From an uncultured Gammaproteobacteria bacterium (GTDB taxonomy: Bacteria > Patescibacteriota > Patescibacteriia > Magasanikbacterales > UBA922): 64,000 nucleotides of DNA. Both the position numbers and the translations under genes were made by a program. Shown in pieces: positions 5,876 through 63,889 of this stretch. The stretch lies in contig OZ246405.1 in the NCBI GenBank assembly GCA_965231005.1, forward strand, positions 476,223-540,222, in the 5' to 3' direction. Under the pieces are notes generated by a model. The model was not told the DNA's origin. It saw nothing but the letters and a program-made list of their open reading frames with translations, and did not search any database. The stretch's first letter is position 1. Each line of letters begins with the position of its first letter.

Positions 5876-5876
5876 A

Positions 5877-9419: not shown

Positions 9420-9464
9420 CAGGCAGATTTACATTGTTTTCGAACGACGGAACAACCTATCAGG

Positions 9465-9504
9465 ATAACGTTGGGGTCGATGGTTCAATTCCATCCAGGC
9501 CTAC
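9465..9504 (+). repeat. Exact 40-bp duplicate of the tRNA-Ile 3' half (att-like scar or tRNA pseudogene fragment)
   Basis: ataacgttggggtcgatggttcaattccatccaggcctac at 9381-9420 is repeated 44 bp downstream. A further 14-nt exact match to the anticodon-arm region (agcacaacgcttat) lies upstream at 9300-9313. Confidence 0.85.
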
Positions 9505-9524
9505 GAGCCGATTTGAATTTTTTT

Positions 9525-32344: not shown

Positions 32345-32480
32345 CCAGAAATCAGGGACTAAGGTCTAATCTAGGAACTGCTAAATAGAACACAGATTTC
32401 CAGGATTTATACAGATTGACACAGATCAGATCTGTGAAAATCCTGGTCAATCATGGTAATCTGTGTCCTATCTAATCTTT
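32345..32480. repeat. Imperfect-palindrome intergenic repeat, copy A (family shared with 37290 and 49993)
   Basis: Arms aatagaacacagatt...ccaggattt and aaatcctgg...aatctgtgtcctatctaat. About 70% similar to the reverse complement of copy C. Confidence 0.5.
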
Positions 32481-32561
32481 CTTAAAAAAATAGTTAGATC
32501 TCTAATTCTTATTTTTTACAATATTGATTTGAATCTCTACATGCCGTATACTAATGATGCT

Positions 32562-34255: not shown

Positions 34256-34630
34256 ATGAGTAATTATTTGAGGTTAGAAGATTTAGAAGTATATCGTATT
34301 TCACTTGAGTACGGTAAACTCGGGTGGAATATTTATTCTGGATTTAATTGGAGGATCCAGAAGGTTATGGGAGACCAAATGATCAGAAGTGTTGATTCAG
34401 TTGCAGCGAATATAGCTGAGGGATATGGAAGGTTTCATTATTTAGACAAAAATAAGTTTTACTACAACGCACGAGGGTCTCTACTAGAATCTTCTCATTG
34501 GTTTACTGTGATGGAGCAGAGAGAGTTGATAGATAAGCAAGTATTTGATAAATCGAAAGATTTTTTTTCCGCAATATTGGTCATGCTTAACAAATTGATC
34601 AATTCACAGTTGAAAAGGAAAAACAAGTAA
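34256..34630 (+). CDS. Four-helix-bundle protein (23S rRNA intervening-sequence protein family)
   Basis: AANIAEGYGR motif. 124-aa helical product. Confidence 0.6.
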   Translation: MSNYLRLEDLEVYRISLEYGKLGWNIYSGFNWRIQKVMGDQMIRSVDSVAANIAEGYGRFHYLDKNKFYYNARGSLLESSHWFTVMEQRELIDKQVFDKSKDFFSAILVMLNKLINSQLKRKNK

Positions 34631-48243: not shown

Positions 48244-48738
48244 GGTCGTCTCCTTCTCGCTCCGTCGGAGCGAATGTGCTCCAGATCGGAGCTGGTGGCT
48301 TTGGTGGTGTCCGCGGAAATGCGAACAAAGGGCGTCCACTACCTATGTCGAGGACTCAATTTCCGTACAACTTTGCACGAGAATTGTCTCCTCAACATAG
48401 GAGTATTTCACACACGCGTATGATGTTATATATTCGCTTGATTGAGCAAAGATATAAACATGTAAAAGAGCAATTTATCTACTAAATTCGGAGGGTATAC
48501 TCCATCTAAAACATACCATAAAATAGGCAAAATGTCAAATGTCAAGAGGTGCTTGTGGATAAGTTTTCTCTCTTCGCAGACCCTAAATTAGGGGTAAAAA
48601 ACAGTGAAATACAGAAATAGTGCGAAAATTTGCTAAAACAAGGGTTAAAATGCGTGGAGTGGGTTTTATCTTTATTTTATTTTTTCTATGGTAGTATCTC
48701 AGTGTTTTTCCACAGCGGACTACACAAAGGAGGTCCAC

Positions 48739-49686
48739 ATGAGAACGTTCATTACACTACTAGCTTTTCTGCTTTTCTGTGCCTGTCAGTCCACAGACGA
48801 GGCTTCAGGATCATCAGACGGCTCTGGCAAGTCCGGTCCAACAGTCCACCAGGCGTACAAGCCCCTGTTCAACTGGGGGCCGAAGCGGATGAAGAATTAT
48901 GGCGACAAGCCATTATCTGAATTGGATACTGCGCTCGAATATAAATACGACGAGCATGGACGCCTCATCAGATTTTTTGGTGAGTTTGATTTTCCAACCA
49001 AGACGTACTATCCAATTCTTTTTTTCTATGGAAAGAATGGTCTTCTTTCCAGAGTTGAAGGCAAAGGGCATTTCGAATATACGTACCAATACAACGATCA
49101 ACTTCAATTGGTTAGGCTTGTATTTTCCTATTATGATTCAGATACAGGAAAATACAGTAACGTAGCGAGCGTTTTGGTTTACACATACGATGAAAATGGT
49201 CGTCTCGCAACTGTTATTGATTATGAGTCTAGCGAAAACTCAGAGCCAGAAGAGAAAGCTGTTTACTCTTGGAATTCTGCAACTGGAGGGCTTGCTCGCG
49301 TAGAGGAGTACAGATATTCAAAAGGTACATGGAAAACCTACAGTGTTGACGAGTACACGTATGAGTCTGGGAAACTCAAGTCACTCAAGAGTAAGTTCGA
49401 AAATTTTACTAGGTCCTGGGTATACACTTGGCGCCCTGATGGATTTTTGGATACAAGGACATTCGATGATAAAGATCAATCAAGATACATCTATCACGAT
49501 GGCAAGTTAGTAAAGGAGTGTCGGTACGTCTGGAAAAACGACAAGTGGAACGACAAGTCTGACTGTAGAGAAATGGAGCATTCTGAGGAAGGATCATCAT
49601 ATACATTTGAGCGTGATTGGTGGCCATCAATGCCTGGGATAAATTCATACATGCTCCTACACTACGGCCACCTGTCCTGGAAGTAG
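48739..49686 (+). CDS. Lipoprotein with YD-type (RHS-like) repeats
   Basis: SD AAGGAGGT 5 nt upstream of MRTFITLLAFLLFCAC. Repeated YKYDEHGRL, YTYDENGRL and YTYESGKL motifs. Confidence 0.65.
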   Translation: MRTFITLLAFLLFCACQSTDEASGSSDGSGKSGPTVHQAYKPLFNWGPKRMKNYGDKPLSELDTALEYKYDEHGRLIRFFGEFDFPTKTYYPILFFYGKNGLLSRVEGKGHFEYTYQYNDQLQLVRLVFSYYDSDTGKYSNVASVLVYTYDENGRLATVIDYESSENSEPEEKAVYSWNSATGGLARVEEYRYSKGTWKTYSVDEYTYESGKLKSLKSKFENFTRSWVYTWRPDGFLDTRTFDDKDQSRYIYHDGKLVKECRYVWKNDKWNDKSDCREMEHSEEGSSYTFERDWWPSMPGINSYMLLHYGHLSWK

Positions 49687-50281: not shown

Positions 50282-53200
50282 ATGATTGAGTTCATAATTA
50301 CACAATTACACCGACTGAAACGGTTGATTTCTTGGTTTATCCCAAGGACAAAGAAGCAGTTCTTCATAACTGCATTTTTCGGTATTCTCAGCCTTGCTGT
50401 GTTTTTTGGTCTTGCCGACGGAGTAAGTGCACAAAATACTGCAGTTAATGTGGGTGCGCAAGGAGTAAACTGGATTATTCGTCTCATGTCAGAGATCTTG
50501 CTTTGGCTTGCAAGAATTTTTATTTCAATGACCGTCTTTGGTTTGAAATTGTTTATTGAAGTAGCAAAATATAATGGATATGTAGATGCTCCAATCGTTA
50601 TTATTGGGTGGACAATGGTTCGAGATATTGCAAACATGTTCTTTGTGGTTGTCATGCTCTTGATTGCCTTTGGAACGATTCTAGGACTTGAGCAATATGA
50701 ATGGAAAAAAACATTGGTCAATTTTATTCTTGCTGCCGTGTTTGTTAATTTCAGTAAATTGATTGCAGGATTAATTATTGATATTGCTCATGTCTTCACT
50801 ATTACATTTTTGAACGCAATTGTTGCAACAGCTGGTGGAAATTTGGTGAACATGTTGCACTTGGATCAGATCCTTCAAATTGTTGGAAATGATTTATCGT
50901 ATGGACAAGATATAGGGTGGGAAGTATTTGGTGGTGCTGTTATGGCCATGACTTTTGCTGGAATTGCCATGATGGCAATTGGTGGATACACGATTGTTAT
51001 GGTTATGCGGTTGGTCTTACTCTGGGTTGCAATTATTCTTTCTCCACTTGCATACATTTTTGCAGTTATTCCACAAACAAAATCATATGCAGACGAATGG
51101 TGGAGTGAATTTGGAAAACACGTGTTAGTTGCACCAGTCATTGTATTCTTTATGTGGCTGGCCTTTTCGGCTCTGGGGCAAGGAAATTTTGCCGGAGCCG
51201 ATCTCAACCTGTCGCTTGAAGGAGAAAAACAAGCAGCCGCTGCTGTTGGTATTCAAGACACTGGTGGTCCAACATCGGTAAGTATTAGTAAAGTTTCCAG
51301 TTGGGAAAACATGGCAAACTTTTTTATTGCAGTTGCCTTTTTGATTGTTGGTCTTGAACGAGTCCAAAAGATTGGTGCTCGTGGTTCTTCATTTGCAGGA
51401 GATGCAGTTGACTTTGGAAAGAAAGCAGCATTATACGGAAGTTTGGTTGGTGCAGGATTGTGGGCAAGTCGTGGTGCAAGAGATTTAGCTACCAAGGGGG
51501 CTGAAGGTGCTGCTGTTGGTACATTGAAACATTTACCTGTTGTTGGTGGAGAGAAAATCAAACGGTATGCAGCAACAGCTGGTCAGGGTATAAGAGGTCT
51601 GTACTATGGAAAAGGTATGGAAGTCACAGAAAAAGGTGAGGAAATTCGAGATGCATTGCAAAAAGATCATGAGACACTAGCAAACCTTAAAGACGGTGGA
51701 GCAGGTTTGAAAAAAGAAATTGCAACACTTGAAAAAGCAAGAGAAAGTGCAGAAGGTGATCAGGCAGCTGAAATTGAAAAGAAACTTGGTGAGAAAAAAT
51801 CTGAACTTGCACAAGTGGCAAGTATGGGAGAAGAACAAAAGCAAGCATTGCAAGAAAAAATTGCAACACAGGAAAAAGAACTTTCCAAAGAAATGGGTGG
51901 AGGATTTATTGGTTGGATGGCTCGAAAAAATATCCAATCACAAAAACGTCTTGGAAAAACAGAAAAGCAGGCAGACGTTCGTCGAGATCTTCTTTGGAAA
52001 CGAACAGGATCACAAGCTGGAGGATACTTTATTGGTCTTGGAAAAATTGGAGATCGTTACAAAGGTGTTGATGCGCAAGATCGTATTGAGCGTGGATGGT
52101 TGGCTGCTGAGTCTATGCGGTCAAAAGCAAAAGATGAAGAATTTGAAAATCTTGGTCGCGGACAGGTTCTTGCAAATGCACGGTATAAGTTTGACGTGAA
52201 TGGATCAAAATTCTTTGGGATGTTTGGAACTACTCCAAAGTATGAATTTTCCAAAGGAACCATGGCAGAACGTATTTCTGAGAGAAAAAATCGTGCAGAA
52301 CGAATTGATAGTACAATACGAAAAATAGAAGGGGAAGCACATCTAAGAATGAGTCTTGGAAAGGTAAAGTTGCAACGTCAGTATAAAGATATAGATGGAG
52401 GTGGAAAACGAGTTGTGAAGCCAGATGGTTCTGTCATGTATGAATTTACAGACGACGATACCATGCGTGCAAAAGCAGAAGCAAAAATGATTGCAGATAC
52501 TGTTAGCGCAGTGGAAGAGAGAGAAATTGAAGAGCATCTTATAGACATGTACCAAGATGGTGATTTGTTGGACAAAGGTGCACAAGATATTGAGCGTGGT
52601 CGATTTAGTGAAGATATGAAAGCTGCACTTGCAAGAGAAGATGAATTGGGCGAAGAGCTTAGTACTATTCAGGCAAGAGAAGTGACTGTAGAAGGTGTTG
52701 ATGGTCCTACTTCTGTAGCTAATTTAATTGAACTAGAAAAAACAGCACGAAAAGCACAAGTAGATGCACAAGTTGCTGCAAAAAATAAAAAGAGTGAACT
52801 TACAAAAAATGCTGCAGATAGACTCATTCAAAGAGATGCAGATTTGAAGGAAATTATAAAACAAGGAAATGATGACAAGAAAAAAAGAGCTGAAATTGAA
52901 AAGAAAGACAAACGAACAAAATCAGATAAAGCATGGTTGCAGACACCTGCTGCTGCTTCAAATCCAGATAGGGTGACTCAGATTGAAGATAAAGATAATA
53001 GAACAGAAGAAGAAATAGCTTGGCTTGCTGCTAACACGGTTCAGGAAATAGAAGATCGTATTACAGCAGCAAAGACCGAGCTCGAAGCTATTGATACAGA
53101 TGAAAAGAAAAAGGAGTTGATCAAAGCTGAAGTAGAAGCAGATAATGAACTTACTGCTTTAAATACAGATGTTACTGACAAGAAAGACGCTGCGCGTGAA

Positions 53201-55288
53201 CAATCAAGAATCAGACGTGCAGCAGAAGAAGTGCTTAAAGAGGAAACTGCAGGAGAGTATGACACAGCAAAGCAAAAATTAAAGAACCATGAAAAAGAAA
53301 TGAATGAATTGCGTGAAAAGTTAAAAGAACAAGGTGAAATGGTTCGACTAGGTGATACAAAGACCATTCAGGAAATTATTGATACACTTACAAGTTCTCT
53401 TACTGGAAAGTCAGAAGCAGCTCAAGTAGATATTCAAAAAGATATTAAAGCATGGCAAAAGTTGTTAAAAGGTGCAAGCTCTGGAAGTCTTGCATGGCGC
53501 TATGGTGCACAAAAAGGATTGCAAAAAGACAGAAAAGATGGATACACATATCAACACAATTATCTTTTGAGTGAAGCAGAGCAGCGTGTTGTGCATGATG
53601 AACGTGGACTTGATACACCAAAAAGTACACTTACAGAATTGATTGAACAATATACAAAGAGCTTTTCAGAAATGTCTATTGAAAGTTTTGTTGCAAATGC
53701 AGGAGACATGCTTGTGAAAATGCTTGACAAACAAGAAAAAGAGACATTGACCAGTCAAGACAAGGCAGTGATGATGGGATTGTTTAAACGTGGATTTGAC
53801 CGTGCATGGATTGATGATGCAATTTATGCTATTACTGGGAACAAAGAAGCGAATAGGTTGATTGGTGAAAAACTTGGTTGGGACGATGATGAATATGTTG
53901 ATGACAAGATTCGAGATATCCAAATGCTTTTGGCTAGTGGGGTGGATGTTGACTTTGTTCGTAACAATGGTGTTATTTCACAAATTAAAGATGTGGCAGA
54001 AATGGACTTTAAGTTGAATATGAAACAGATGGAAAAAGGATTGACAACAGGAAAATTTGTAGACAAAGCAGGAAAAGATATTACAAAAGCTATTCATGAT
54101 AAAGTTCTTTCATTTATGAAAGACAATGACATGAAATTCAATGTTGACCAGGAAATGATGTTTGCCGACTTTTTTTCTGGAGTAGAAGAGGCACAAACAA
54201 AGGCAAGGGAACGTATAGACAAACGCCTTGCAAATATGGGTGAATTAGGAAAAAGTGAAGAATTTATTGCTGAGGTAACAAAAAGGCATAATGCATGGAG
54301 CAGCCGCACAGATAATGCGAGTGCAGCAGCAGCAGTTCGAGAATCTACATATAAGGGTTGGATTCGAAAACATATGGAAAGCCAATCAGAAATGCAGTTC
54401 TTGGGTAACTTGCGTCCCGATGCACTAAAAGTTGGACATGCAGAAAATGCTGGGTGGGCACTCAGTAGTAAAATGGCAGATGGAAGTAATTTATATTTAG
54501 GAACAGGTATGCGTCGTGCACGTCGGCATGTGATGGGAGATGCGCTCAAGATGAGAGCAACAGACAGAACATCTTTCCAAACGCATAGTTATGCAAACTT
54601 AACAGAAAGTCAGTGGGGACAAATGATTACAAGTTTGCGTTTAGATGATTATCTTGCAATTCGTGGAAATACAACAGATCCAAATACATTTCGTAACACA
54701 AATGCGCGTGATCGGTTGCTTCGTGCTGGTTTGAGTAGTATTGATAAAGTAGATGATTATACAGACGAGAATAATACATTTGAGGTTGCCATGCTTCGAC
54801 ATAAAAAAGGTGCGAAAAAAGGACAACTAACAAATTTGGCCCAAAACTGGGCAGTAAAATATAAACAATGGACAGGAAATAATTTTGATGAACTTTCAGA
54901 CGACATGAAGCAAGCATTTATTGTGCAACAAACAATGCAAAAGAATTTTGGAAAGCAAATGAGTGGAAATATTAAAGATTTCTTAATGACACTTTCAGAA
55001 ATGGGTGGAGTAGACATGCTTGAAGCATTTCAACAAGGAAAAATGAATATACGAATGTACAATCCAGCAAAAGGAGAAATGGTAAAATACGACAATGTTC
55101 AAAAATTGATTGAACATTATAATAATGGTGATTTCCATGGCAAGGTAAACCATGAGACACAAGATTACGAAAAAGTTTCTGGACAAATTGCTGATCGTAT
55201 TTCCAAATTTATTCCGAAAAAAGCAGGAAAGGGCGGAGATGATGCATCTGATCGATTAGCAATGGGTCTAGATGATGATGCCGCATAA
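50282..55288 (+). CDS. Giant (1668 aa) polytopic membrane protein, VirB6/TrbL-like N-terminal domain plus about 1200-aa charged coiled-coil/globular extension
   Basis: Signal-like N-terminus, then 6 or more TM helices (for example MFFVVVMLLIAFGTILGL and VMVMRLVLLWVAIILSPLAYIFAVIP). A long E/K-rich region follows. The gene lies next to VirB3/VirB4-like genes. Confidence 0.5.
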   Translation: MIEFIITQLHRLKRLISWFIPRTKKQFFITAFFGILSLAVFFGLADGVSAQNTAVNVGAQGVNWIIRLMSEILLWLARIFISMTVFGLKLFIEVAKYNGYVDAPIVIIGWTMVRDIANMFFVVVMLLIAFGTILGLEQYEWKKTLVNFILAAVFVNFSKLIAGLIIDIAHVFTITFLNAIVATAGGNLVNMLHLDQILQIVGNDLSYGQDIGWEVFGGAVMAMTFAGIAMMAIGGYTIVMVMRLVLLWVAIILSPLAYIFAVIPQTKSYADEWWSEFGKHVLVAPVIVFFMWLAFSALGQGNFAGADLNLSLEGEKQAAAAVGIQDTGGPTSVSISKVSSWENMANFFIAVAFLIVGLERVQKIGARGSSFAGDAVDFGKKAALYGSLVGAGLWASRGARDLATKGAEGAAVGTLKHLPVVGGEKIKRYAATAGQGIRGLYYGKGMEVTEKGEEIRDALQKDHETLANLKDGGAGLKKEIATLEKARESAEGDQAAEIEKKLGEKKSELAQVASMGEEQKQALQEKIATQEKELSKEMGGGFIGWMARKNIQSQKRLGKTEKQADVRRDLLWKRTGSQAGGYFIGLGKIGDRYKGVDAQDRIERGWLAAESMRSKAKDEEFENLGRGQVLANARYKFDVNGSKFFGMFGTTPKYEFSKGTMAERISERKNRAERIDSTIRKIEGEAHLRMSLGKVKLQRQYKDIDGGGKRVVKPDGSVMYEFTDDDTMRAKAEAKMIADTVSAVEEREIEEHLIDMYQDGDLLDKGAQDIERGRFSEDMKAALAREDELGEELSTIQAREVTVEGVDGPTSVANLIELEKTARKAQVDAQVAAKNKKSELTKNAADRLIQRDADLKEIIKQGNDDKKKRAEIEKKDKRTKSDKAWLQTPAAASNPDRVTQIEDKDNRTEEEIAWLAANTVQEIEDRITAAKTELEAIDTDEKKKELIKAEVEADNELTALNTDVTDKKDAAREQSRIRRAAEEVLKEETAGEYDTAKQKLKNHEKEMNELREKLKEQGEMVRLGDTKTIQEIIDTLTSSLTGKSEAAQVDIQKDIKAWQKLLKGASSGSLAWRYGAQKGLQKDRKDGYTYQHNYLLSEAEQRVVHDERGLDTPKSTLTELIEQYTKSFSEMSIESFVANAGDMLVKMLDKQEKETLTSQDKAVMMGLFKRGFDRAWIDDAIYAITGNKEANRLIGEKLGWDDDEYVDDKIRDIQMLLASGVDVDFVRNNGVISQIKDVAEMDFKLNMKQMEKGLTTGKFVDKAGKDITKAIHDKVLSFMKDNDMKFNVDQEMMFADFFSGVEEAQTKARERIDKRLANMGELGKSEEFIAEVTKRHNAWSSRTDNASAAAAVRESTYKGWIRKHMESQSEMQFLGNLRPDALKVGHAENAGWALSSKMADGSNLYLGTGMRRARRHVMGDALKMRATDRTSFQTHSYANLTESQWGQMITSLRLDDYLAIRGNTTDPNTFRNTNARDRLLRAGLSSIDKVDDYTDENNTFEVAMLRHKKGAKKGQLTNLAQNWAVKYKQWTGNNFDELSDDMKQAFIVQQTMQKNFGKQMSGNIKDFLMTLSEMGGVDMLEAFQQGKMNIRMYNPAKGEMVKYDNVQKLIEHYNNGDFHGKVNHETQDYEKVSGQIADRISKFIPKKAGKGGDDASDRLAMGLDDDAA

Positions 55289-55466
55289 TTTATTATCTAA
55301 AATCTATTATTTATAATCTAATATATGGAATTGTTAATATCCTGCTCAGTATAATGATATTAAAAGGTTATATGGCTATATTGCTACTCTATCCTACGCA
55401 ACTAACAATTTAGCAATAAAGCAATATAACAATATATTAGATAGTAGATATTAAATATTAGTCAGT

Positions 55467-56642
55467 ATGATGGATCTTAGCGTAATGATAATACAATTAT
55501 ATGCAGAAAAAACTCCTGAAGAGATTGAGAAGTTGTTAGCATTGGTTGAAACAAAATCAACAGAATATTATGCACATACATGGCAAGATGTCACAGTTGA
55601 ACTCTTAGCAGATCAAGAAGTGCAATTAAATCTTATTAGAACTCTGTATCAGTCTTCTTTTTCTTATTCTGGTGTTGTAGATGAAATTCTTCGTTCGTTA
55701 GATGAATGGTCAGAACGAACATTAATTTTTGAACATCTTTCCTCAAATGATAATATTTTTTATCGAAGATTTTATACATTTTTAGGATTTTTGAATTTTG
55801 CAGATATTGAATTTAAGCGAAAAATGAGATTGCTTGATTCAGAATTGCTTGTACTGGCATGCCATTGGGATATTCCTATATATGTAAATGTTCAGTCACA
55901 CTTTGCAGAATTTGCACAAATAAATGCACTCAAAAAAGAAGCGCTTCTTTTTGCAAATGCTATTGCTGCAAATCAAACAGAGCTAGGTGAAGAAAGAAAA
56001 GAATTAAAAACAATTGCGCAGTGGGTAAAAGCATTTGACGAGCATGAAGGTGCTACGTTTGAAGAGCGAGTAGACACATTTTTATCTGAACAGTTTGAGG
56101 CAACACGTTTGTCAGAAGCAGACTCAAATATTTTAGGGAAAATTCTTTCATTGTACTGGAGTTTAAAAGGATCTTTTATTTGGCAAGAAATTGTTAACAG
56201 CCATACTGCTGGTTATGAGCAAGTAGAAAAGAAAAATGTTCGTTCGGTTGATGATCATTATATTCAGTTATTATACGAAGGAACAGAACAAGACATTGTG
56301 GAATGGTTGCAAGATTATGAAGAAACAGTTCATTGGATAGATCTAACTGGAAAGTCAGAAGCATTTGTAAAGAAAATCTTGTTTGTGCTATCAGAAAAAG
56401 TTGATTTACAAAATCAGCAGCAGGTAGAACTTGTTATTAAATTTATTAATAAGTTAAAAGAACGAGGACTCGAGCTTATTGATGAAGTACTGTACTTTGA
56501 TGAAGAAGATCATTCGTTCCACTGGGATGAAGAACTTATTTTTGCAGAGAGCGAGGAAGAAACCCCAGCTTCCTCTGAAGGTGCAGATGATAATAAGGAA
56601 TCAGATGAGTTAAAGAAACTAAAAGATTCATTCGCACAATAA
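55467..56642 (+). CDS. Acidic cytoplasmic hypothetical protein (391 aa)
   Basis: ORF only; no motifs recognised. Confidence 0.5.
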   Translation: MMDLSVMIIQLYAEKTPEEIEKLLALVETKSTEYYAHTWQDVTVELLADQEVQLNLIRTLYQSSFSYSGVVDEILRSLDEWSERTLIFEHLSSNDNIFYRRFYTFLGFLNFADIEFKRKMRLLDSELLVLACHWDIPIYVNVQSHFAEFAQINALKKEALLFANAIAANQTELGEERKELKTIAQWVKAFDEHEGATFEERVDTFLSEQFEATRLSEADSNILGKILSLYWSLKGSFIWQEIVNSHTAGYEQVEKKNVRSVDDHYIQLLYEGTEQDIVEWLQDYEETVHWIDLTGKSEAFVKKILFVLSEKVDLQNQQQVELVIKFINKLKERGLELIDEVLYFDEEDHSFHWDEELIFAESEEETPASSEGADDNKESDELKKLKDSFAQ

Positions 56643-56644
56643 TA

Positions 56645-56786
56645 ACTAACAATTAACAAAAAACAATTAACAAGTTTTCTTGGTTCTTTATGCGAATATA
56701 TCTCGTGTGAATTTTCAAAAGAACATTTAGACGCTCACCGCACCTAAATAGTTTGTTAATTGTTAATTGCTAGTTGTTAATTGCTA
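56645..56786. repeat. About 145-bp MITE-like element with TTGTTAATTG-type terminal inverted repeats, copy D
   Basis: Its reverse complement is about 90% identical to 62281-62421 over roughly 140 bp, as judged by manual alignment. Confidence 0.6.
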
Positions 56787-56790
56787 AGAT

Positions 56791-58314
56791 ATGGCAAAGA
56801 AAACTCCACAACAAAATGATCAGCCAAGTGCACAACGTCCACCATCTGGTGCGCCGGTTATTCGAATTAAAAAAGCAGACGGAAGTATTGCGACTGTTCC
56901 ATTGGATCAGTTTAAAAAACAATATACTGATTCTTCAAAACAGGCACCTACTACAAGTCCATCAGCCACTCCTGCCTCACCGGCAGGCAGGCCTTCTCCA
57001 TCGGCAGCTGAATCAACTCCACCGGCAGCTCCTGCCTACGCCAAGGTTTCGGCAGGTAAACCAGCCTCACCGGCAGGCAGGCCTGCAGTTGCTGTTCCAC
57101 CACCATTGCAACGGGTAAAAAATAAATTGAAACTTAATTTTTCATCTTCATCTAAAAAGAGTGTTGCTCCTACGCCTCCAGATGTTGAAAAAGAATCACC
57201 AAAAGAAATACCAACGCCAGAAAAAAAGGTTGTTCCTCCAGCTCCTATGCCTGCGAAAGAAAAGGTTTCAAAAGAGTTGCCAAAAAAGATTGAAACACCT
57301 CAAGCTGTTCCAGCACAAGAAGATGAATTTCTTTCTTTTGAAGGACAAGTTCCGCCTCCACCTCCTGTTCGCATGACAAAAGAAAAGGTAGAACGTTCTC
57401 CTACAGATATGCTTGCAGAAACAGCAACGCATGCACTATCTACAACAACTCCTGTTGCACATGCCTTTGTTGATGCTGCTGCAGCAAAAGCATGGGACAA
57501 AGAAGATCATAGTTCTCCTTTGGAAATGTCTATGCACGAGCACGAGGAAGTTCCAGATCATCTTCCAGCACTGCCTGAACAACACGACGAAGTATTAGAT
57601 GAAGTATTGCATTCTCTTTCTTTTCAGATTAGTGAAGAGCTTCATAGCCGTGTAAAATCACTTATTCAGTCGCGGTTAAAAGAAATTAGAACTGATGATC
57701 AGATAATTGCCTATGGAGTTAGACCTGCACAGCAGGGTGGTCTTGGATTAAAACAAGAAGAAGCAAAGATACTTCTCGATGCAATATTGAACGCATTGCA
57801 CCTTCCTCATCAGAAACGAAAAAAAGAAGAAAAAAGAAAACAGGTAAAATCATCTATACCTATTGCGCCACCGATACAAACATCTCAAAAAGCTCCAGTT
57901 GCAAATGTTGCACCACGTCCGCGTGCAGTTCCTTTGAAAAGTACAGGTAAACCAATGGTACATGATGTGCAACATCCAGAACCTGTTACTCATATGCAAA
58001 CAGTCGGACCCATTGATGAACTTCGTATGTTTTCATTAGAAGATTTACGACGTCTTGGGACTACTCCAGATGCGATGTATCAAAAATTATTAGAGAAATT
58101 TACTATTTTGCAAAAAGAATCATATTTACTGTATATCGATGCTGTACAAGCATGGTATCACAGTCCGTTGTATCGTTTGTATCAGTCGCTTTTGCAACAA
58201 GCAATTAACAATGAAAAACCAATGAAAGATATTATTCAGTCACAGGGAAAGGGAAGCATCACAATGGATGAATTTTTACATATTGCAGAACTAGGAAAAA
58301 ATATTAGTTATTAA
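56791..58314 (+). CDS. Pro/Ala/Ser-rich protein (507 aa) with globular C-terminal domain
   Basis: ASPAGRP tandem motif, PPPPP runs and a KRKKEEKRK stretch. Confidence 0.55.
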   Translation: MAKKTPQQNDQPSAQRPPSGAPVIRIKKADGSIATVPLDQFKKQYTDSSKQAPTTSPSATPASPAGRPSPSAAESTPPAAPAYAKVSAGKPASPAGRPAVAVPPPLQRVKNKLKLNFSSSSKKSVAPTPPDVEKESPKEIPTPEKKVVPPAPMPAKEKVSKELPKKIETPQAVPAQEDEFLSFEGQVPPPPPVRMTKEKVERSPTDMLAETATHALSTTTPVAHAFVDAAAAKAWDKEDHSSPLEMSMHEHEEVPDHLPALPEQHDEVLDEVLHSLSFQISEELHSRVKSLIQSRLKEIRTDDQIIAYGVRPAQQGGLGLKQEEAKILLDAILNALHLPHQKRKKEEKRKQVKSSIPIAPPIQTSQKAPVANVAPRPRAVPLKSTGKPMVHDVQHPEPVTHMQTVGPIDELRMFSLEDLRRLGTTPDAMYQKLLEKFTILQKESYLLYIDAVQAWYHSPLYRLYQSLLQQAINNEKPMKDIIQSQGKGSITMDEFLHIAELGKNISY

Positions 58315-58447
58315 CTATTAGTTACTAGTTAATAGACAAGAAAAGAATTTTATTGTAAATCATGTCAAAGCAAGTGGAATCATATTGGTAGTAAATATTG
58401 ATGGATTCTAATAGCTAATAACTAGTAACTACTAACTAGTAAAAGGT

Positions 58448-58918
58448 ATGCAACAATTTGTTGTTCCACAATTTATTGATGTTGAAGATAAAATTTTTGG
58501 TCCAATTACCACAAGACAATTTTTAATTTTGCTCGTTGGGAGTTTAATTATTTTTGTTGGATACAGACTTGCAGATTTTACATTATTTATTTTTATTGTG
58601 GCTATTATTGGGGGTCTTTCACTAATATTTGCGTTTGTAAAAATAAATGGACAAGATTTTCATTATTTTTTGTTAAATATTTTTCAGACAATGCGGCGTC
58701 CTGGACTTCGAGTATGGAGAAAAGCATATACAAAAGACGAATTAAATTTTTTGCGCAAACGTGACATGGAAATAGAGGTAGTCGAGGTACAAACAAGAAA
58801 GAAAGCAAAGCAATCACATATTCGAGATCTTTCATTAATTGTAAACACTGGTGGATATTATCGACCACTCGATGGAATTACACCCCAAGAAAAAACAACA
58901 CTCCCTCCACTTCATTAG
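58448..58918 (+). CDS. PrgI/VirB3-like small membrane protein
   Basis: The N-terminus FIDVEDKIFGPITTRQFLILLVGSLIIF followed by a second TM helix resembles the PrgI/TcpE family. It sits immediately upstream of VirB4. Confidence 0.5.
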   Translation: MQQFVVPQFIDVEDKIFGPITTRQFLILLVGSLIIFVGYRLADFTLFIFIVAIIGGLSLIFAFVKINGQDFHYFLLNIFQTMRRPGLRVWRKAYTKDELNFLRKRDMEIEVVEVQTRKKAKQSHIRDLSLIVNTGGYYRPLDGITPQEKTTLPPLH

Positions 58919-58976
58919 TTTGGGAGTTGTGTTCATGGTATAATGAATTAACAAAAGATTAATATCTGTTCTGATT

Positions 58977-59687
58977 ATGGCAAAGGAAAAGAAACAAAAA
59001 AAAGGACAAACAAAAAAGAAAAAGAAAAAACCAAGTCGTCCATCTACACAGACATATTTGCCGATTGCAGAAATTCGAGACGGTGTTTTAGTGTTGAAAG
59101 ATGGAACACTCCGAAAAGTAATGCTTACATCGAGTATTAATTTTGCCCTAAAGTCTGAAGATGAACAAAACGCACTTATTTCTTCGTATGTTGGCTTTTT
59201 AAATTCCTTAGATTTTCCATTGCAGATTGTTATTCAGTCTCGCAAATTACAGACGCGACCGTATTTAGACAAATTGGTTGCTGCAGAAAAAGAGCAACAA
59301 AATGAGTTGCTTCGAGTGCAGATTGCAGATTACAGGGCATTTATTGAAGAACTCGTTGAGATTGGTCAAATTATGACAAAGCGTTTTTATGTTGTTGTAT
59401 CATATGATCCTGCATCAAATAAGAAAAAAGGATTTTTTACACGCATGAAAGAAGTTATAAAACCAGCATCTGCCATTCGTTTAAAACAATCACGATTTAA
59501 TCAACGAAAAGAAGATTTGGATTTACGCGTCCGACAAGTTTCTGGTGGATTGCAAAGTATTGGTTTGCAAGTTGTTGAACTAGACACACAAGCATTGATT
59601 GAATTATTTTATTCAACCTATAATCCAGATATTTCTTTTGATCAGGGATTAGGAAAAATAGAAGATCTCAGAGTTGAGAATCTCTAA
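58977..59687 (+). CDS. VirB4/TraC N-terminal domain encoded as a separate ORF
   Basis: LPIAEIRDGVLVLKDGTLRKVMLTSSINFALKSEDEQNALISSYVGFLNSL is the typical VirB4 N-domain. A stop falls at 59685-59687, and the next ORF begins 13 nt later in the +1 frame. Confidence 0.6.
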   Translation: MAKEKKQKKGQTKKKKKKPSRPSTQTYLPIAEIRDGVLVLKDGTLRKVMLTSSINFALKSEDEQNALISSYVGFLNSLDFPLQIVIQSRKLQTRPYLDKLVAAEKEQQNELLRVQIADYRAFIEELVEIGQIMTKRFYVVVSYDPASNKKKGFFTRMKEVIKPASAIRLKQSRFNQRKEDLDLRVRQVSGGLQSIGLQVVELDTQALIELFYSTYNPDISFDQGLGKIEDLRVENL

Positions 59688-59700
59688 TATTACGTAGTGT

Positions 59701-61575
59701 ATGCCATTTAAGCCAGAATCCGCAGGAGCGGGCAGACAACGTTCCGGAAAACTGCAGAAGAAGCAGGGAAAGGAACAAGAATTGAAAAAAGAATTGATTT
59801 CGATTGAAGAAGAACGAACCTACCGAGAGGGAACTGTTGCTATCCGTGACTTGATCGCTCCATCTACATTTCGTGTTGAATCAAACTTTATCCAGCTTGG
59901 TGATGTTTTTTTGCGCACCATTTTTGTTATTAGTTATCCACGGTATATTTCTGTTGGATGGAGTTCTCCACTCCTCAACTTAAATATGACAATGGATGTT
60001 TCAATGTTTTTCTATCCTGTTCCATCGCCAATTATTTTAAAACAATTAAAAAAGAAGGTTGGAGCACTGCAAGCACAGCTCAGTGCAGATGCAGAAAAAG
60101 GTGCGCCACGAGATCCAATTCGTGAAACGGCTCTTCGTGACATTGAACAGCTTCGTGACGATCTTACCCAAGGAATTGAACATTTTTTCCAATTTGGATT
60201 TTATGTCACTATTTATGCAAAAGAAAAAGAACAGCTCGAGCAAATAAGTGAAGATATTGAAAATATTTTTGGTTCAAAACTTATTTATACAAAAAATGTT
60301 TTGTTCCAGGCTGAACAAGGATTTACATCAACACTGCCACTTGGAATAGATGAACTTATGGTTGGATTTAATATGAATTCTTCACCAATTGCATCATCGT
60401 TTCCATTTATGTCTTCAGAACTTACCAGTGACGATGGTATTTTGTATGGAGTAAATAGACATAATAATAGTTTGATATTATTTGATAGATTTACCATGCA
60501 AAATGCAAATATGGTTGTGTTTGCTACATCTGGTGCTGGTAAATCATACGCAGTGAAACTCGAAGTGCTTCGAAGTCTGATGCTTGGAACAGAAGTGATT
60601 ATTATTGATCCAGAAATGGAATATGTGCACCTTACAGAAGCGGTTGGTGGAACATTTGTGAATATTTCTCTTGCATCTGAAAGTAAAGTAAACCCATTTG
60701 ACTTGCCACGACCAGTTGGTCAGCAGATTTCAACAGAAGATGTTATTCGTAGTGCAGTTATTACAGTAAAAGGAATGCTTCGGATTATGTTTGGCAAGAT
60801 TACACCGCAAGAAGATTCTATTTTGGATCGTGCACTCCTTGAAACATATGCAAAAAAAGATATTACACCAGCAAGTGATTTGGCAACAGTTGAATCTCCA
60901 ATTATGCAAGACTTGCTTGATGTGCTCGAAGGAATGGATGGTGCAAGTACCCTTGCATTAAAATTGAGAAAATATACAGAAGGGACATTTGCAGGATTGT
61001 TCAATGCACCAACAAATGTGAATATGGATAATCAATTGGTTGTATTTAGTGTGCGTGATCTAGAAGATGAGTTACGTCCAATGGCAATTTACTCTCTGAT
61101 TAGTTATATTTGGAATATTGTCCGAAGTGAACGAAAAAAACGTATTCTCATTATTGATGAGGCGTGGTGGCTTATGACGCACGAAGATAGTGCAAAGTTT
61201 GTCTATGCACTTGTAAAACGATGCAGAAAATATTATCTTGGAATTACAACAATTACACAAGATGTTAATGACTTTTTGCGATCTCAGTATGGTCAGGCAA
61301 TTGTGACAAATTCATCCATGCAGTTGCTGTTGAAACAATCTCCATCTGCCATTGAAACAATTCAAAAAACATTCCTTTTAACCGAAGGAGAAAAATTCTT
61401 ACTTCTTGAAAGTGCTGTTGGAGAAGGAATTTTCTTTGCGGGATTGAAACATGCAGCGATTAAAGTTGTTGCATCGTACACAGAAGACCAACTTATTACG
61501 TCAGATCCACAGCAACTTCTTGAAATAGAAAAAGCAAAAGCAGAATATGAAGCAGAGATTGCAGGACGGGGGTAA
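59701..61575 (+). CDS. virB4: VirB4/TraC/PrgJ-like type IV secretion ATPase (central and C-terminal domains)
   Basis: Walker A SGAGKSY and Walker B LIIDEAWW are present. The conserved segment GDVFLRTIFVISYPRYISVGW is also found. Confidence 0.85.
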   Translation: MPFKPESAGAGRQRSGKLQKKQGKEQELKKELISIEEERTYREGTVAIRDLIAPSTFRVESNFIQLGDVFLRTIFVISYPRYISVGWSSPLLNLNMTMDVSMFFYPVPSPIILKQLKKKVGALQAQLSADAEKGAPRDPIRETALRDIEQLRDDLTQGIEHFFQFGFYVTIYAKEKEQLEQISEDIENIFGSKLIYTKNVLFQAEQGFTSTLPLGIDELMVGFNMNSSPIASSFPFMSSELTSDDGILYGVNRHNNSLILFDRFTMQNANMVVFATSGAGKSYAVKLEVLRSLMLGTEVIIIDPEMEYVHLTEAVGGTFVNISLASESKVNPFDLPRPVGQQISTEDVIRSAVITVKGMLRIMFGKITPQEDSILDRALLETYAKKDITPASDLATVESPIMQDLLDVLEGMDGASTLALKLRKYTEGTFAGLFNAPTNVNMDNQLVVFSVRDLEDELRPMAIYSLISYIWNIVRSERKKRILIIDEAWWLMTHEDSAKFVYALVKRCRKYYLGITTITQDVNDFLRSQYGQAIVTNSSMQLLLKQSPSAIETIQKTFLLTEGEKFLLLESAVGEGIFFAGLKHAAIKVVASYTEDQLITSDPQQLLEIEKAKAEYEAEIAGRG

Positions 61576-61694
61576 TAGTTATTAGTTACTAGCTATTAGT
61601 TATTAGGTCATAGATAATCTGACTTACAATTACTAGATGAACGTACCAAGATTTTTAGTAACTATTAACTAATAACTATTAACTAGTAGAGAAT

Positions 61695-62276
61695 ATGTTA
61701 GATATTCGAAAAAGACTTTTCATCATTTTAGGTCTTGGAGCAGGGCTGATTCTTGTTGTTATTTTGATAATTATGTTTGCTTCAAAGTCTCCTGATGGGG
61801 AAAAAGATATTACAGTAGACACGTTTGTTCCTCAGCAAGTCATCAATACAGATTCAGATGATGCAAAAAGTGATGTGATTGTTCCACCAGACGTTACCAG
61901 TCCTTCTGTTGTGGAAGATGAAAATGAATTATACGCACGGCAAACTGCACGACTTTTTGTTGAAAGATTTTTAAGTTATTCAAATCAAAATAGTAATAAA
62001 CATATTGAAGACGTTCTTCCACTTGCAACAGCGCGGATGAAGCAGTGGATTGCTTCACAAGAAGTGGACGAAGGCACTGCATATGAAGGTGTAACAACAA
62101 AAGTTATTGCAAGTAGTATAAAATCAATTAGTAGTAACCAAGCAATAGTAAATTTTGGTGTGCAGCAAACAATTCAAACAATTACAAAAAAAGATATTAA
62201 GACTCGTGATGGACAACTTTACTTACTAAGGTCTGGCAGTGACTGGAAGGTAGATGGGTTGTTCTGGGATCGGTAA
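61695..62276 (+). CDS. Bitopic membrane protein (N-terminal TM plus about 165-aa extracytoplasmic domain); possible VirB8-like
   Basis: Topology and size only; no motif match. Confidence 0.35.
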   Translation: MLDIRKRLFIILGLGAGLILVVILIIMFASKSPDGEKDITVDTFVPQQVINTDSDDAKSDVIVPPDVTSPSVVEDENELYARQTARLFVERFLSYSNQNSNKHIEDVLPLATARMKQWIASQEVDEGTAYEGVTTKVIASSIKSISSNQAIVNFGVQQTIQTITKKDIKTRDGQLYLLRSGSDWKVDGLFWDR

Positions 62277-62280
62277 AAAA

Positions 62281-62421
62281 ACAATTAACAACTAACAATT
62301 AACAAACTATTTGGGTGCGGTAAGCCTCTGAATGTTCTTTTGAAGATTTACACGAACTGGATTCGTATAAAGAACCAAGAAAACTTGTTAATTGTTTTTT
62401 GTTAATTGCTAATTGTTTTAT
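62281..62421. repeat. MITE-like element, copy E (inverted relative to copy D)
   Basis: acaattaacaactaacaattaacaaac ... cttgttaattgttttttgttaattgctaattg terminal inverted repeats. The core matches the reverse complement of copy D. Confidence 0.6.
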
Positions 62422-62423
62422 AT

Positions 62424-63128
62424 ATGAAGGGGGGAATAAAAAGAATTTTTGAATTGTTGAAAGATTATATCTTTCCGCTATTTTGTCTGGGTTGTAAAAA
62501 AGAAGGAATGTGGGTGTGCAAAGATTGTTTGAATCAGATTGAAACTGTTGGGATATTTCAGTGTCCTGTTTGTGAAAAAGAAAATAAGAATGGACGATGT
62601 TGTGATAATTGTAAAACATCGTCTTTTTTGTTTTGGCATATTGCTGCGGGAAAATATAATGAAGATGAATTATTGGGAAAAATTATTTATCAACTTAAAT
62701 ATCAGTACGTCGAAGAAATGGGGGAGTATGTTTCTTTTTTTATAGAATCTTTTTTAGAAGCAAGAAAAAAAGATTTTTCTTCATTTGATTATATTATCCC
62801 AGTTCCATTGCATAAACGGCGTTTTGCAGAAAGGGGATTTAATCAAGCTGAACTGATTGCAAAGATATTTTCAGAACAAACAAACGTCCCTATTCTTGAT
62901 TGCTTAAAACGACAACGATATACAAAACAGCAAGCACGATTGGATCGTGATAAACGTCAAAAAAATCTTGATAATGCATTTTTGCTTCATTCTCTTGAAC
63001 TAAAAAACAAAAAAATCATCCTTGTAGATGATGTGTTTACAACAGGGAGCACAATGCAAAGTTGTGCAAGGGTTTTAAAAGATGCTGGAGCAGGGGAGGT
63101 TGTTGGATTCACCTTAGCAAGAGGGTAA
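62424..63128 (+). CDS. comFC: ComF-family phosphoribosyltransferase with N-terminal double zinc-ribbon
   Basis: CLGC..C..C, CPVC and CCDNC cysteine pairs, plus the PRTase motif IILVDDVFTTGST. I chose ATG 62424; the longer ORF from TTG 62406 would extend into the repeat. Confidence 0.8.
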   Translation: MKGGIKRIFELLKDYIFPLFCLGCKKEGMWVCKDCLNQIETVGIFQCPVCEKENKNGRCCDNCKTSSFLFWHIAAGKYNEDELLGKIIYQLKYQYVEEMGEYVSFFIESFLEARKKDFSSFDYIIPVPLHKRRFAERGFNQAELIAKIFSEQTNVPILDCLKRQRYTKQQARLDRDKRQKNLDNAFLLHSLELKNKKIILVDDVFTTGSTMQSCARVLKDAGAGEVVGFTLARG

Positions 63129-63205: not shown

Positions 63206-63598
63206 CTAATTGGTTTCACGTTGTTCTTTTTGTTCTTTGTGAAGTCTTCTGACGAGCTCAGCGAGCTGAGATTTTTCGCAGGCGTGGCTACATCCTCGTT
63301 TGGTCATTTCATTCCTCAGGTTTTCCAAACCTGAAATCGCCACCATCGGTCCTGTGAATCCACGTCTTTTTCGAAGGTTTTTGATCAGCCAGAAGGAGTC
63401 AACGGTCAAGCTGTTGATGAGTCCGTCGACAGCAACGAGCCAGGGATTTTTGTGCGTCTCATCGAGCGCGTGGCTTGCCTCGCGAGCATCAACGGCGATC
63501 ACAACAGTGAAATCACCTGAAAGCGCGTCTCTGAAACGCGCATGCCATCCGCCTTCATCCTCTAGAATGAGAACAATGGGTTTGCGTTGTGTTGGCAT
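63206..63598 (-). CDS. High-GC stand-alone receiver (CheY-like REC) domain protein
   Basis: SD GGAGGT upstream of MPTQRKPIVLILEDE. Acidic pocket EDE, VAVDG and AISG beta-strand motifs are present. The 220-aa ORF extension beyond this start overlaps the tRNA genes and is rejected. Confidence 0.45.
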   Translation of the reverse strand: MPTQRKPIVLILEDEGGWHARFRDALSGDFTVVIAVDAREASHALDETHKNPWLVAVDGLINSLTVDSFWLIKNLRKRRGFTGPMVAISGLENLRNEMTKRGCSHACEKSQLAELVRRLHKEQKEQRETN

Positions 63599-63696
63599 GT
63601 CTACCTCCGAAAGAGTGTACTGGTAATCAGTACAATCATACCGAAGGAAGAAATTTACAATATGAAGATAGCAAAATATGAGTAAAAAGTCAATAA

Positions 63697-63722
63697 TAAA
63701 AACATCTTTTAAGATGTTTTTA
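63697..63722 (-). terminator. Rho-independent terminator downstream of tRNA-Ser(UGA)
   Basis: AAAACATCTT-ttaa-AAGATGTTTT with a T-rich tail on the minus strand. Confidence 0.6.
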
Positions 63723-63727
63723 TTTTG

Positions 63728-63814
63728 CGGAGAGGGAGGGATTCGAACCCTCGAAGGACTTTCATCCTTAACAGTTTTCAAGACTGCCGCCTTCAACCAC
63801 TCAGCCACCTCTCC
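63728..63814 (-). tRNA. tRNA-Ser (anticodon UGA), type II with long variable arm
   Basis: Reverse complement reads GGAGAGG-TG-GCT-GAGTGGTTGAA-GGC, anticodon loop CTTGAAA, variable arm TAAGGATGAAAGTCCTTC, T-arm GAGGG-TTCGAAT-CCCTC, acceptor CCTCTCC, discriminator G. Confidence 0.85.
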
Positions 63815-63889
63815 GTAATAAATTGTCTCGCCTCCCGCTTTCGCTCGTCTGCGGACTGCGTCCGCCATAGCCGAGCTACAGCGAGGCGA

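Follow-up and report, generated by a model that had tools for sequence, protein, structure and literature searches.

The occurrence of TrsD homologues beside virB4 in Patescibacteria has already been described. Quiñonero-Coronel et al. (Microb Genom 2025, PMC12102498) report such pairs across Patescibacteria and count 2,272 TrsD homologues, 1,664 of which lie near virB4; those of Gracilibacteria do not adjoin it. The same study treats TrsD as a remote homologue of the VirB4 N-terminal portion with no function assigned, finds no VirB3-VirB4 fusions in Patescibacteria, and cites the virB4-associated TrsD homologue of Ca. Southlakia epibionticum as listed among essential genes. Roles summarized for the VirB4 N-terminal domain are the pairing of dimers, embedding in the membrane and contact with VirB3 and VirB8 (PMC12857230). 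Guglielmini et al. 2014 (PMC4027160) do not name TrsD in their main text. The 'TraD' of the pELF plasmid is a VirD4-like protein (PMC13492992) and is irrelevant to the TrsD/TraD family considered here.

We analyzed a stretch of 64,000 nucleotides (the window) that carries two adjacent open reading frames, ORF1 and ORF2, which correspond to a TrsD-like protein and VirB4. The locus is one more instance of the Patescibacteria T4SS described in PMC12102498, with no substantive difference: it comes from the same phylum-level lineage, encodes VirB4, TrsD, PrgI/VirB3 and VirB6-like proteins with the TrsD homologue adjoining virB4, is chromosomal and has comF next to the cluster. Pfam scans of the window ORFs returned no relaxase. 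The arrangement is also that of TrsD/TrsE in pGO1/pSK41-type Gram-positive systems (PMC12102498), where a protein of ~227 aa is encoded directly upstream of a 672-aa VirB4-like ATPase. ORF1 is 25% identical to TrsD (E 3e-5) and ORF2 25% identical to TrsE (E 3e-50). However, the pSK41 plasmid is conjugative and carries a relaxase and a coupling protein, neither of which was found in the window, and the present locus is chromosomal. Similar pairs are present in Pontibacillus NZ_CP062975, C. perfringens pJFP838A and Haloplanus NZ_CP098516, in which a 'hypothetical protein' with 22-34% identity to ORF1 is encoded directly before a VirB4 of the DUF87/CD1110 type, whose start falls at positions 161-172 of the CD1110 profile. 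A PrgI gene precedes the pair of C. perfringens, as it does here. These pairs differ in being plasmid-borne, in belonging to other phyla or another domain of life, and in their longer N-terminal partners (274, 312 and 552 aa). Single-chain VirB4 proteins (R388 TrwK, the CD1110 family, Myxococcus pYRE) have the domain order and content of ORF1 and ORF2 concatenated, but in one polypeptide, while the present locus encodes two, with the break after ~170-230 residues of the N-terminal domain. VirB3-VirB4 fusions likewise redistribute the VirB3, VirB4 N-terminal and VirB4 ATPase modules over polypeptides, but by fusion rather than fission, and PrgI here is a separate gene. The initial annotation regarded the split as unusual. 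Two-gene VirB4 is instead the rule in Patescibacteria, an arrangement already known, real but ordinary.

The two genes and their junction

ORF1 extends from 58977 to 59687 on the forward strand (236 aa) and ends with a TAA at 59685-59687. ORF2 begins with an ATG and extends from 59701 to 61575 on the same strand (624 aa). Between them lies a 13-nt spacer, TATTACGTAGTGT (59688-59700, forward strand), with no evident Shine-Dalgarno-like motif. Because (59701-58977) mod 3 = 1, ORF2 is in the +1 frame relative to ORF1. The spacer contains a TAG at 59695, the closest stop upstream of ORF2 in its own frame, and the ORF1 frame has an additional stop at 59709, beyond the TAA at 59685. With stops in both frames, the two ORFs therefore cannot be joined by a single slip. 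The initial annotation had placed the two ORFs, the TAA, the spacer, the frame change and the TAG correctly to the base, and every coordinate was reproduced. It was also right that ribosomal slippage could not join the ORFs here, and the conclusion holds generally because orthologous pairs occupy all three relative frames. A promoter and terminator scan of 55200-62500 detected no terminator-like site between the genes. Promoter-like sites in the same region were not in excess (20 versus 25.2 ± 5.0 in shuffles), and a 10/12 match inside ORF1 (59595-59624) is not distinguishable from chance. The DNA of the locus is identical in two further assemblies, both from run ERR2281801, with 0 mismatches over 2599 nt in one (L082) and over 1405 nt in the other (L083).

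ORF2 belongs to the VirB4 family of T4SS ATPases (TrsE-like), judging from its motifs, domain homology, a curated family cut-off and its T4SS neighbors. It scores 346.3 bits against NF045971 (CD1110-family VirB4; cut-off 325), with residues 36-581 aligned to positions 176-728 of 752. Pfam returns P-loop_TraG (3.7e-26, 92.1 bits, cut-off 25.8), AAA_10 and DUF87. A variable, charged N-terminus (residues 1-38) is followed by the second part of the VirB4 N-terminal domain (~40-240) and the RecA-like C-terminal ATPase domain (~241-600). The last of these matches PDB 4ag5, a solved VirB4 C-terminal domain, over residues 241-600 (E = 5e-49); TrwK gives a weaker match to ORF2 (E 5e-5). As had been annotated, the Walker A/B ATPase domain lies in the second ORF, and both motifs are intact on the forward strand: ATSGAGKS at residues 275-282 (60523-60546) and ILIIDE at residues 482-487 (61144-61161). 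Walker A residues G278, A279, G280, K281 and S282 are invariant among 56 ORF2 homologues, and so are D486 and E487 of Walker B. AF2 modelling of ORF2, for which the alignment was shallow (56 sequences, 80-88% identity), gave a poor model (pLDDT 46.5, pTM 0.37) that was kept out of the fold search.

ORF1 has the layout of a TrsD protein, 236 aa encoded 13 nt upstream of a 624-aa VirB4-like ATPase, and we read it as a protein homologous to the first subdomain of VirB4's N-terminal domain but encoded on its own. Its N-terminal tail of ~21 aa (MAKEKKQKKGQTKKKKKKPSR) is Lys-rich and poorly conserved. A phmmer search of ORF1 against all PDB chains gave nothing meaningful, and a profile of 102 ORF1 homologues found no PDB sequence there either. 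The link to VirB4 came instead from fold comparison and NCBIfam profiles. The predicted model folds autonomously (pLDDT 82), and its top match in the fold search is R388 TrwK/VirB4. In three full-length VirB4 models, the profile match to ORF1 is N-terminal. ORF1 resembles the VirB4 N-termini and TrsD weakly in sequence, with 21-34 bits, far under all family cut-offs. Against NF041427 (TrsD/TraD family), residues 29-146 align to positions 20-147 of 201 with 27.2 bits (E 3e-6). The curated cut-off is 200 bits, reached by pSK41 TrsD at 227.6 bits, which leaves ORF1 outside that curated subfamily. PF26593 (TraC-like) appears in the precomputed annotation of a protein identical to ORF1 and of all 120 nearest homologues. 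Our local Pfam hmmscan returned a sub-threshold TraC_F_IV match (16.1 bits) but not PF26593, a model possibly missing from the local set.

Colinearity with full-length VirB4

ORF1 and ORF2 are colinear with full-length VirB4 and tile its profiles without overlap. On the CD1110 profile ORF1 covers positions 9-127 and ORF2 176-728; the corresponding ranges are 91-258 and 292-892 on VirB4_plasma, and 3-165 and 239-724 on TIGR00929. The ORF2 polypeptide thus begins at positions 176, 292 and 239, respectively, without a complete N-terminal domain, and the first VirB4 segment absent from it is the one matched by ORF1. The 858-aa protein of Myxococcus plasmid pYRE is a fused form with both parts in ORF1-ORF2 order: ORF1 residues 28-217 align to its residues 16-205 (BLASTP E 9e-10) and ORF2 residues 142-546 to its residues 334-750 (E 1e-30). 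The break was originally placed at the border between the N-terminal and ATPase domains, but ORF2 keeps ~240 residues ahead of the RecA-like domain. Because these residues correspond to positions 239-446 of TIGR00929, the second part of the N-terminal domain, the break lies inside that domain, after its first ~170-230 residues.

The break point is common to pSK41 TrsD/TrsE and to other monoderm and haloarchaeal plasmids. On the CD1110 profile, where ORF2 starts at position 176, pSK41 TrsE starts at 183 and the ATPase partners of Pontibacillus, C. perfringens and Haloplanus start at 172, 172 and 161, respectively. The exact tiling on full-length VirB4 profiles and this common break point were worked out in the present analysis.

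The colinearity bears on the possibility that ORF1 is an independent accessory factor, chaperone-like or regulatory, and that ORF2 is a naturally short, self-sufficient VirB4. TrsD carries no assigned function and its Gracilibacteria homologues lie away from virB4 (PMC12102498); the ORF1 model folds by itself; and some homologues have C-terminal extensions (300-443 aa among the representatives, 552 aa in Haloplanus), all of which would suit such a factor. However, ORF2 and all partners of the split type start at ~161-183 of CD1110 and lack precisely the segment matched by ORF1, and in the Myxococcus fusion the ORF1 part likewise precedes the ORF2 part. The match of ORF1 to TrwK spans 166 residues, versus at most 110 for other folds. 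Adjacency and order are, moreover, kept in all 76 related loci discussed below, with a median gap of 11 nt. We consider an accessory role improbable, with perhaps one chance in eight, and favor the reading of ORF1 as a detached part of VirB4.

Conservation of the two-gene arrangement

Comparison with orthologous loci, as proposed in the initial annotation, revealed the same split in 76 of 76 related loci and a fused gene in none. These loci, from genomes whose sequence includes the downstream DNA and whose first gene is 52-80% identical to ORF1, derive from Magasanikbacteria, Falkowbacteria, Kerfeldbacteria, Buchananbacteria, Nomurabacteria and Paceibacter-type MAGs. In each, a stop lies at the equivalent place and is followed by the VirB4 gene, with adjacency and order kept. 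Spacers, stop codons and relative frames differ from locus to locus: the gap ranges from -32 to 472 nt, the first gene ends with TAA in 42 loci, TAG in 23 and TGA in 11, and relative frames 0, 1 and 2 occur in 27, 32 and 17 loci, respectively. Almost every ORF2 homologue starts with an ATG of its own. All of the homologues closest to ORF1 (120 proteins, 224-252 aa) and to ORF2 (120 proteins, 598-724 aa) are unfused. Similarly, the ATPase is absent from all of the 150 best ORF1 representatives at 50% identity (124-443 aa), which reach down to 36% identity, and no fused protein was found in any of these sets. Both halves are under purifying selection, with dN/dS of ~0.10 for ORF1 and ~0.06 for ORF2. 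These data show an ancient split that all members of the lineage share and that purifying selection maintains.

Programmed recoding, by frameshifting or stop-codon read-through, could produce a single VirB4 polypeptide from ORF1 and ORF2. In 12 of the 76 loci (for example L013, L029, L058 and L062) the ORFs are in the same frame with a single stop codon between them, and read-through there could in principle yield some fusion protein. At the present locus, however, both frames are closed (TAA 59685, TAG 59695 and the ORF1-frame stop at 59709). Across the 76 loci, the genes are in different frames in 49, gaps reach 472 nt, and neither a slippery sequence nor the spacing is conserved; together with the ATG of nearly all ORF2 homologues, this makes recoding very improbable.

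That one virB4 gene for ~860 aa was disrupted by a recent nonsense or frameshift mutation, or by an indel from sequencing or assembly, as a purely local look at a stop and a +1 frame change over 13 nt might suggest, is the least credible reading and one to which we give next to no weight, given 76 of 76 relatives with the two-gene structure but differing spacers, frames and stop codons, no fusion in the sets of 120 homologues closest to each half or in the 150 best ORF1 representatives, purifying selection on both ORFs, intact Walker A and B motifs in ORF2, and identical DNA in two further assemblies from the same run. An indel error is excluded because the split is conserved in relatives. The initial annotation had offered a natural split or an inactivating mutation as the two explanations; the conservation and the purifying selection uphold the split and refute the mutation.

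Genomic context and implications

The genes around the pair form a chromosomal T4SS set of the Patescibacteria type: VirB4, TrsD, PrgI/VirB3 and VirB6-like genes in a chromosomal context. All features of the cluster lie on the forward strand. Directly upstream of ORF1 is a gene for a 156-aa PrgI family protein, a VirB3-like small membrane protein (58448-58918; Pfam PrgI 4.3e-09, 37.2 bits, cut-off 27) with a hydrophobic segment at residues ~41-68, so that ORF1 is the one gene between PrgI and ORF2. Further upstream, a giant polytopic protein of 1668 aa (50282-55288) is a candidate translocon subunit: its N-terminal membrane region has weak TrbL/VirB6-like similarity (Pfam TrbL E 0.0028, 17.9 bits, under the 25.9 cut-off, residues 122-300), and the assignment is otherwise by position in the cluster. 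Directly downstream of VirB4 is a bitopic protein of 193 aa (61695-62276) with one hydrophobic segment, a membrane helix at residues ~8-30, and no Pfam match; by its position it is possibly a VirB8-like component. A ComF-like phosphoribosyltransferase with a double zinc ribbon (62406-63128; Pribosyltran 3e-08, DZR_2 2.4e-04) adjoins the T4SS block, and comF commonly accompanies T4SS loci in class ABY1 (PMC12102498). Ribosomal-protein, glycolysis and uvrA genes surround the cluster in the window, and the protein identical to ORF1 is encoded on a 1.23-Mb contig. Neither a relaxase nor VirD4 turned up in Pfam scans of the ORFs of the window, in which the cluster sits at the 3' end and several proteins are without a Pfam match.

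Taken together, we estimate a probability of about 90% that ORF1 and ORF2 are two real, co-oriented and tightly linked genes of a chromosomal T4SS of Patescibacteria (Magasanikbacteria-like), with ORF1 as the first subdomain, now detached, of the VirB4 N-terminal domain and ORF2 as the remainder of that domain with the RecA-like ATPase. The genes follow the order PrgI/VirB3-like, TrsD-like (ORF1) and VirB4 (ORF2). With a 13-nt spacer free of terminator-like sites, the two genes are probably co-transcribed. They would be translated separately, and their products would associate non-covalently. In the R388 structure, this part of the VirB4 N-terminal domain docks to the membrane, pairs the protomers and touches VirB3 and VirB8. 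ORF1 may supply in trans the part with this VirB3/membrane-docking role, and would in this way hold the ORF2 ATPase at the PrgI/VirB6-like translocon.

Annotators should label the pair as a TrsD-like protein and a VirB4 ATPase, neither as a virB4 pseudogene nor as a 'repaired' single gene. The two-gene VirB4 does not reveal a new kind of system. What the tiling offers is a testable role for TrsD, as the VirB4 N-terminal docking subdomain acting in trans, in the T4SS of Patescibacteria, which is among the few systems shown to be necessary for their epibiotic life, with essentiality reported only for Ca. Southlakia epibionticum (cited in PMC12102498). The fission point falls within ~20 profile positions (CD1110 161-183) in Patescibacteria, staphylococcal pSK41-type systems, Firmicutes megaplasmids and haloarchaeal plasmids. 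We tentatively suggest, with a chance of roughly one in three, that TrsD-like proteins are the detached VirB3/membrane-docking subdomain of VirB4 and that this agreement reflects one ancient fission in a deep monoderm/archaeal/Patescibacteria T4SS lineage. If this is true, the docking module and the motor could be made, or exchanged, at different stoichiometries.

A VirB4-type ATPase gene and its neighbours

Judged by its sequence, ORF2 (59701-61575, + strand, 624 aa) is clearly a VirB4-type ATPase. Its Pfam matches are P-loop_TraG (3.7e-26), AAA_10 and DUF87, the solved VirB4 C-terminal domain 4ag5 aligns to residues 241-600 (E = 5e-49), and the protein retains intact Walker A (ATSGAGKS, aa 275-282) and Walker B (ILIIDE, aa 482-487) motifs. 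The TrsD-like ORF1 (58977-59687, + strand, 236 aa) stops with TAA at 59685 and is separated from ORF2 by 13 nt, read from the raw sequence as TATTACGTAGTGT; ORF2 is shifted by +1 from the ORF1 frame. The ORF2 frame is closed upstream of its ATG by TAG at 59695, and a second stop lies in the ORF1 frame at 59709. The ORF list and raw sequence exactly reproduce the positions and frame reported in the initial annotation. At this locus, two other assemblies of run ERR2281801 carry DNA identical to that of the window (0 mismatches over 2599 and 1405 nt).

Pfam scans identified a PrgI family protein (58448-58918) upstream of ORF1 and a ComF-like gene at 62406-63128. PrgI proteins correspond to VirB3 in Gram-positive systems. 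The T4SS cluster also includes two genes of conserved position, located after the VirB6-like gene and before PrgI, for 391-aa and 507-aa proteins (55467-56642 and 56791-58314, both +), neither with a match in a Pfam scan; the first half of the 507-aa protein is Pro/Ala/Ser-rich. Directly 3' of virB4 is a 193-aa bitopic protein (61695-62276, +) with a single N-terminal membrane helix and no Pfam match. It is a candidate VirB8-like subunit, because the few Patescibacteria VirB8 homologues come nearly all from class ABY1 (PMC12102498). T4SS loci of that class commonly contain comF (PMC12102498), as does the window.

Elsewhere in the window, Pfam scans show an ordinary chromosomal region (ABC transporter, L19, UvrA, S2/EF-Ts, glycolysis genes, KsgA). 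Tandem cofactor-independent phosphoglycerate mutase paralogues (iPGM_N plus Metalloenzyme; 553 aa, 32463-34124, and 526 aa, 34669-36249, both +) enclose a 124-aa 23S-rRNA-intervening-sequence-family protein (34256-34630, +); a reduced Patescibacteria genome would not be expected to carry such a duplication. A 724-aa protein (6877-9051, +) has several Dictyostelium-type Cys-rich CTDC repeats (Pfam Dicty_CTDC, 1.4e-31), and the numerous long shadow ORFs that surround it on either strand suggest repetitive or compositionally odd DNA. Other large genes encode a 2030-aa protein with fn3 and Big_13 domains (21774-27866, +) and, just upstream of the T4SS block, a 3051-aa protein (38248-47403, +) for which a Pfam scan gave no match at all, followed by a 332-aa RHS-repeat protein (48688-49686). 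The giant ORFs and the RHS-repeat protein may represent surface proteins or effectors associated with the secretion system. Two listed ORFs overlap tRNA genes. A tRNA-Ile with anticodon TAT (9347-9420), uncommon as a genomically encoded tRNA in bacteria, covers the TTG start of an RluD-like pseudouridine synthase ORF (9387-10496, +), whose true start must therefore lie further downstream. At the window end, where tRNA-Ser tga and gct genes stand back to back, a mechanical 220-aa ORF (63206-63868, -) overlaps the same-strand tRNA-Ser(tga) (63727-63814, -), so its 5' portion is probably non-coding and the real gene shorter.

Conservation of the two-gene layout

At E <= 1e-3, ORF1 has 7493 homologues; the best 120 of these (69-100% identity, mostly Candidatus Magasanikbacteria MAGs) are all 224-252 aa long, with PF26593, 'TraC-like', as precomputed Pfam family. 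Searched exhaustively with HMMER, a set of 1.84 billion cluster representatives yielded 2466 relatives, the best 150 of which, with identity down to 36%, are 124-443 aa and therefore too short to contain an ATPase. No fused VirB4 was present among the 120 nearest ORF2 relatives (598-724 aa). Among close ORF2 homologues, a few (83-86% identity; 5671-7836 of the related locus L001, and proteins P0273 and P0276) have ~722-724 aa versus the usual ~625, an extra length of roughly 100 residues.

The comparison of orthologous loci proposed in the initial annotation was made by scanning one genome per GTDB species. It returned 80 loci of 52-80% identity, labelled Magasanikbacteria, Falkowbacteria, Kerfeldbacteria, Buchananbacteria, Nomurabacteria, Paceibacter and other MAGs, and 76 of them extend far enough for downstream comparison. 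In all 76, the ORF1 homologue stops at the equivalent position and is followed by a same-strand ORF2 homologue. Around this constant architecture the details vary: the second gene is in relative frame 0, 1 or 2 in 27, 32 and 17 loci, the median intergenic gap is 11 nt (range -32 to 472), and the ORF1-homologue stop is TAA in 42, TAG in 23 and TGA in 11. Such a pattern marks two independent genes; neither a frameshift nor recoding nor an error in sequencing would leave it. Codon-level comparison, in which synonymous sites were saturated, gave dN/dS of ~0.10 (ORF1) and ~0.06 (ORF2).

Programmed recoding that joins the two ORFs is excluded, both for the window and as a general mechanism, even though in 12 of the 76 loci (L013, L016, L021, L029, L032, L044, L046, L049, L058, L060, L062, L070) the two ORFs share one frame with a single stop between them. 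That junction lies at ~5640-5715 in most of the 12 (3326 in L032, 984 in L058), and the stop is TGA in L058, L062 and L070. Low-level or occasional read-through fusion is conceivable in these 12 loci, not in the window. That the pair is a virB4 pseudogene or the product of a sequencing error is excluded by the conservation data, which settles the choice between natural split and inactivating mutation left by the initial annotation. We put the probability of a natural TrsD-like/VirB4 gene pair at about 0.9.

Nor is the split unusual, as had been supposed. A survey of T4SS genes across Patescibacteria (Quiñonero-Coronel et al., Microb Genom 2025; PMC12102498) counted 2,272 TrsD homologues, 1,664 of them virB4-associated, and lists the Ca. 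Southlakia epibionticum homologue as essential. The two-gene arrangement is the described norm for Patescibacteria and already known.

Position of the break within VirB4

ORF1 and ORF2 tile full-length VirB4 NCBIfam profiles with no overlap. On the CD1110-family profile (752 positions), ORF1 32-149 covers 9-127 and ORF2 36-581 covers 176-728 (ORF2 346 bits, cut-off 325); on VirB4_plasma (894 positions), ORF1 12-170 covers 91-258 and ORF2 32-598 covers 292-892; on TIGR00929 (792 positions), ORF1 19-187 covers 3-165 and ORF2 68-568 covers 239-724. A fused relative, the 858-aa protein of Myxococcus plasmid pYRE, aligns through residues 16-205 with ORF1 28-217 (E 9e-10) and through 334-750 with ORF2 142-546 (E 1e-30). 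Modelled with AlphaFold2 from 102 homologues, ORF1 is predicted with confidence (pLDDT 82, pTM 0.71) as a self-contained alpha/beta domain. The 14 best Foldseek PDB matches of this model are all R388 TrwK/VirB4 chains (probability 0.98-1.0), below which probability falls to 0.2. Together the two products follow the order of VirB4 colinearly, and ORF1 forms its fold independently.

With the ORF2 P-loop starting at ~residue 270 and the alignment to the solved C-terminal domain at 241, about 200 residues of the VirB4 N-terminal domain remain in ORF2. These alignments place the break within the N-terminal domain, following its first subdomain, rather than at the N-domain/ATPase border where the initial annotation had placed it.

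Shared break point and a proposed role for TrsD

The same order is found in staphylococcal pSK41, where TrsD (227 aa; 25% identity to ORF1, E 3e-5) lies directly upstream of VirB4-like TrsE (672 aa; 25% identity to ORF2, E 3e-50), and TrsE starts at CD1110 position 183 versus 176 for ORF2. Searching 72,556 plasmids by tblastn with ORF1, we obtained matches in 52 records; among the 30 listed, nearly all fall within 'hypothetical protein' genes. In the three split-type cases examined, the ORF1-like gene directly precedes a DUF87/CD1110-type VirB4 whose start falls at CD1110 positions 161-172: a Pontibacillus plasmid (274 aa, then 621 aa), C. perfringens pJFP838A (PrgI, then 312 aa, then 641 aa) and a Haloplanus plasmid (552 aa, then 768 aa). 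Some ORF1-like proteins have long C-terminal extensions (400-552 aa in total; 4977-6635 of locus L085, from the Haloplanus plasmid, and representatives P0136, P0182, P0190 and P0203), with homology in the N-terminal ~230 residues. Such extensions hint that the detached module gained extra domains in some lineages.

The 13-nt spacer, with no terminator-like site found in a scan between the genes, suggests that ORF1 and ORF2 would be co-transcribed, and their products may reassemble non-covalently. In R388, VirB4 protomers pair into dimers through their N-terminal domains, which are also embedded in the inner membrane and contact VirB3/VirB8 (review PMC12857230). By analogy, the ORF2 ATPase would be docked through ORF1 to PrgI and the membrane translocon. 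That ORF1 supplies this docking in trans is somewhat favoured, and it fits the gene order PrgI, ORF1, ORF2. The N-terminal tail of ORF1 is Lys-rich and variable in sequence, with a basic tendency in homologues (median K+R fraction 0.27); one might speculate that it contacts acidic lipids. The added value is modest: one break point is common to Patescibacteria, pSK41-type plasmids, Firmicutes megaplasmids and haloarchaeal plasmids, and TrsD therefore gets a testable role.
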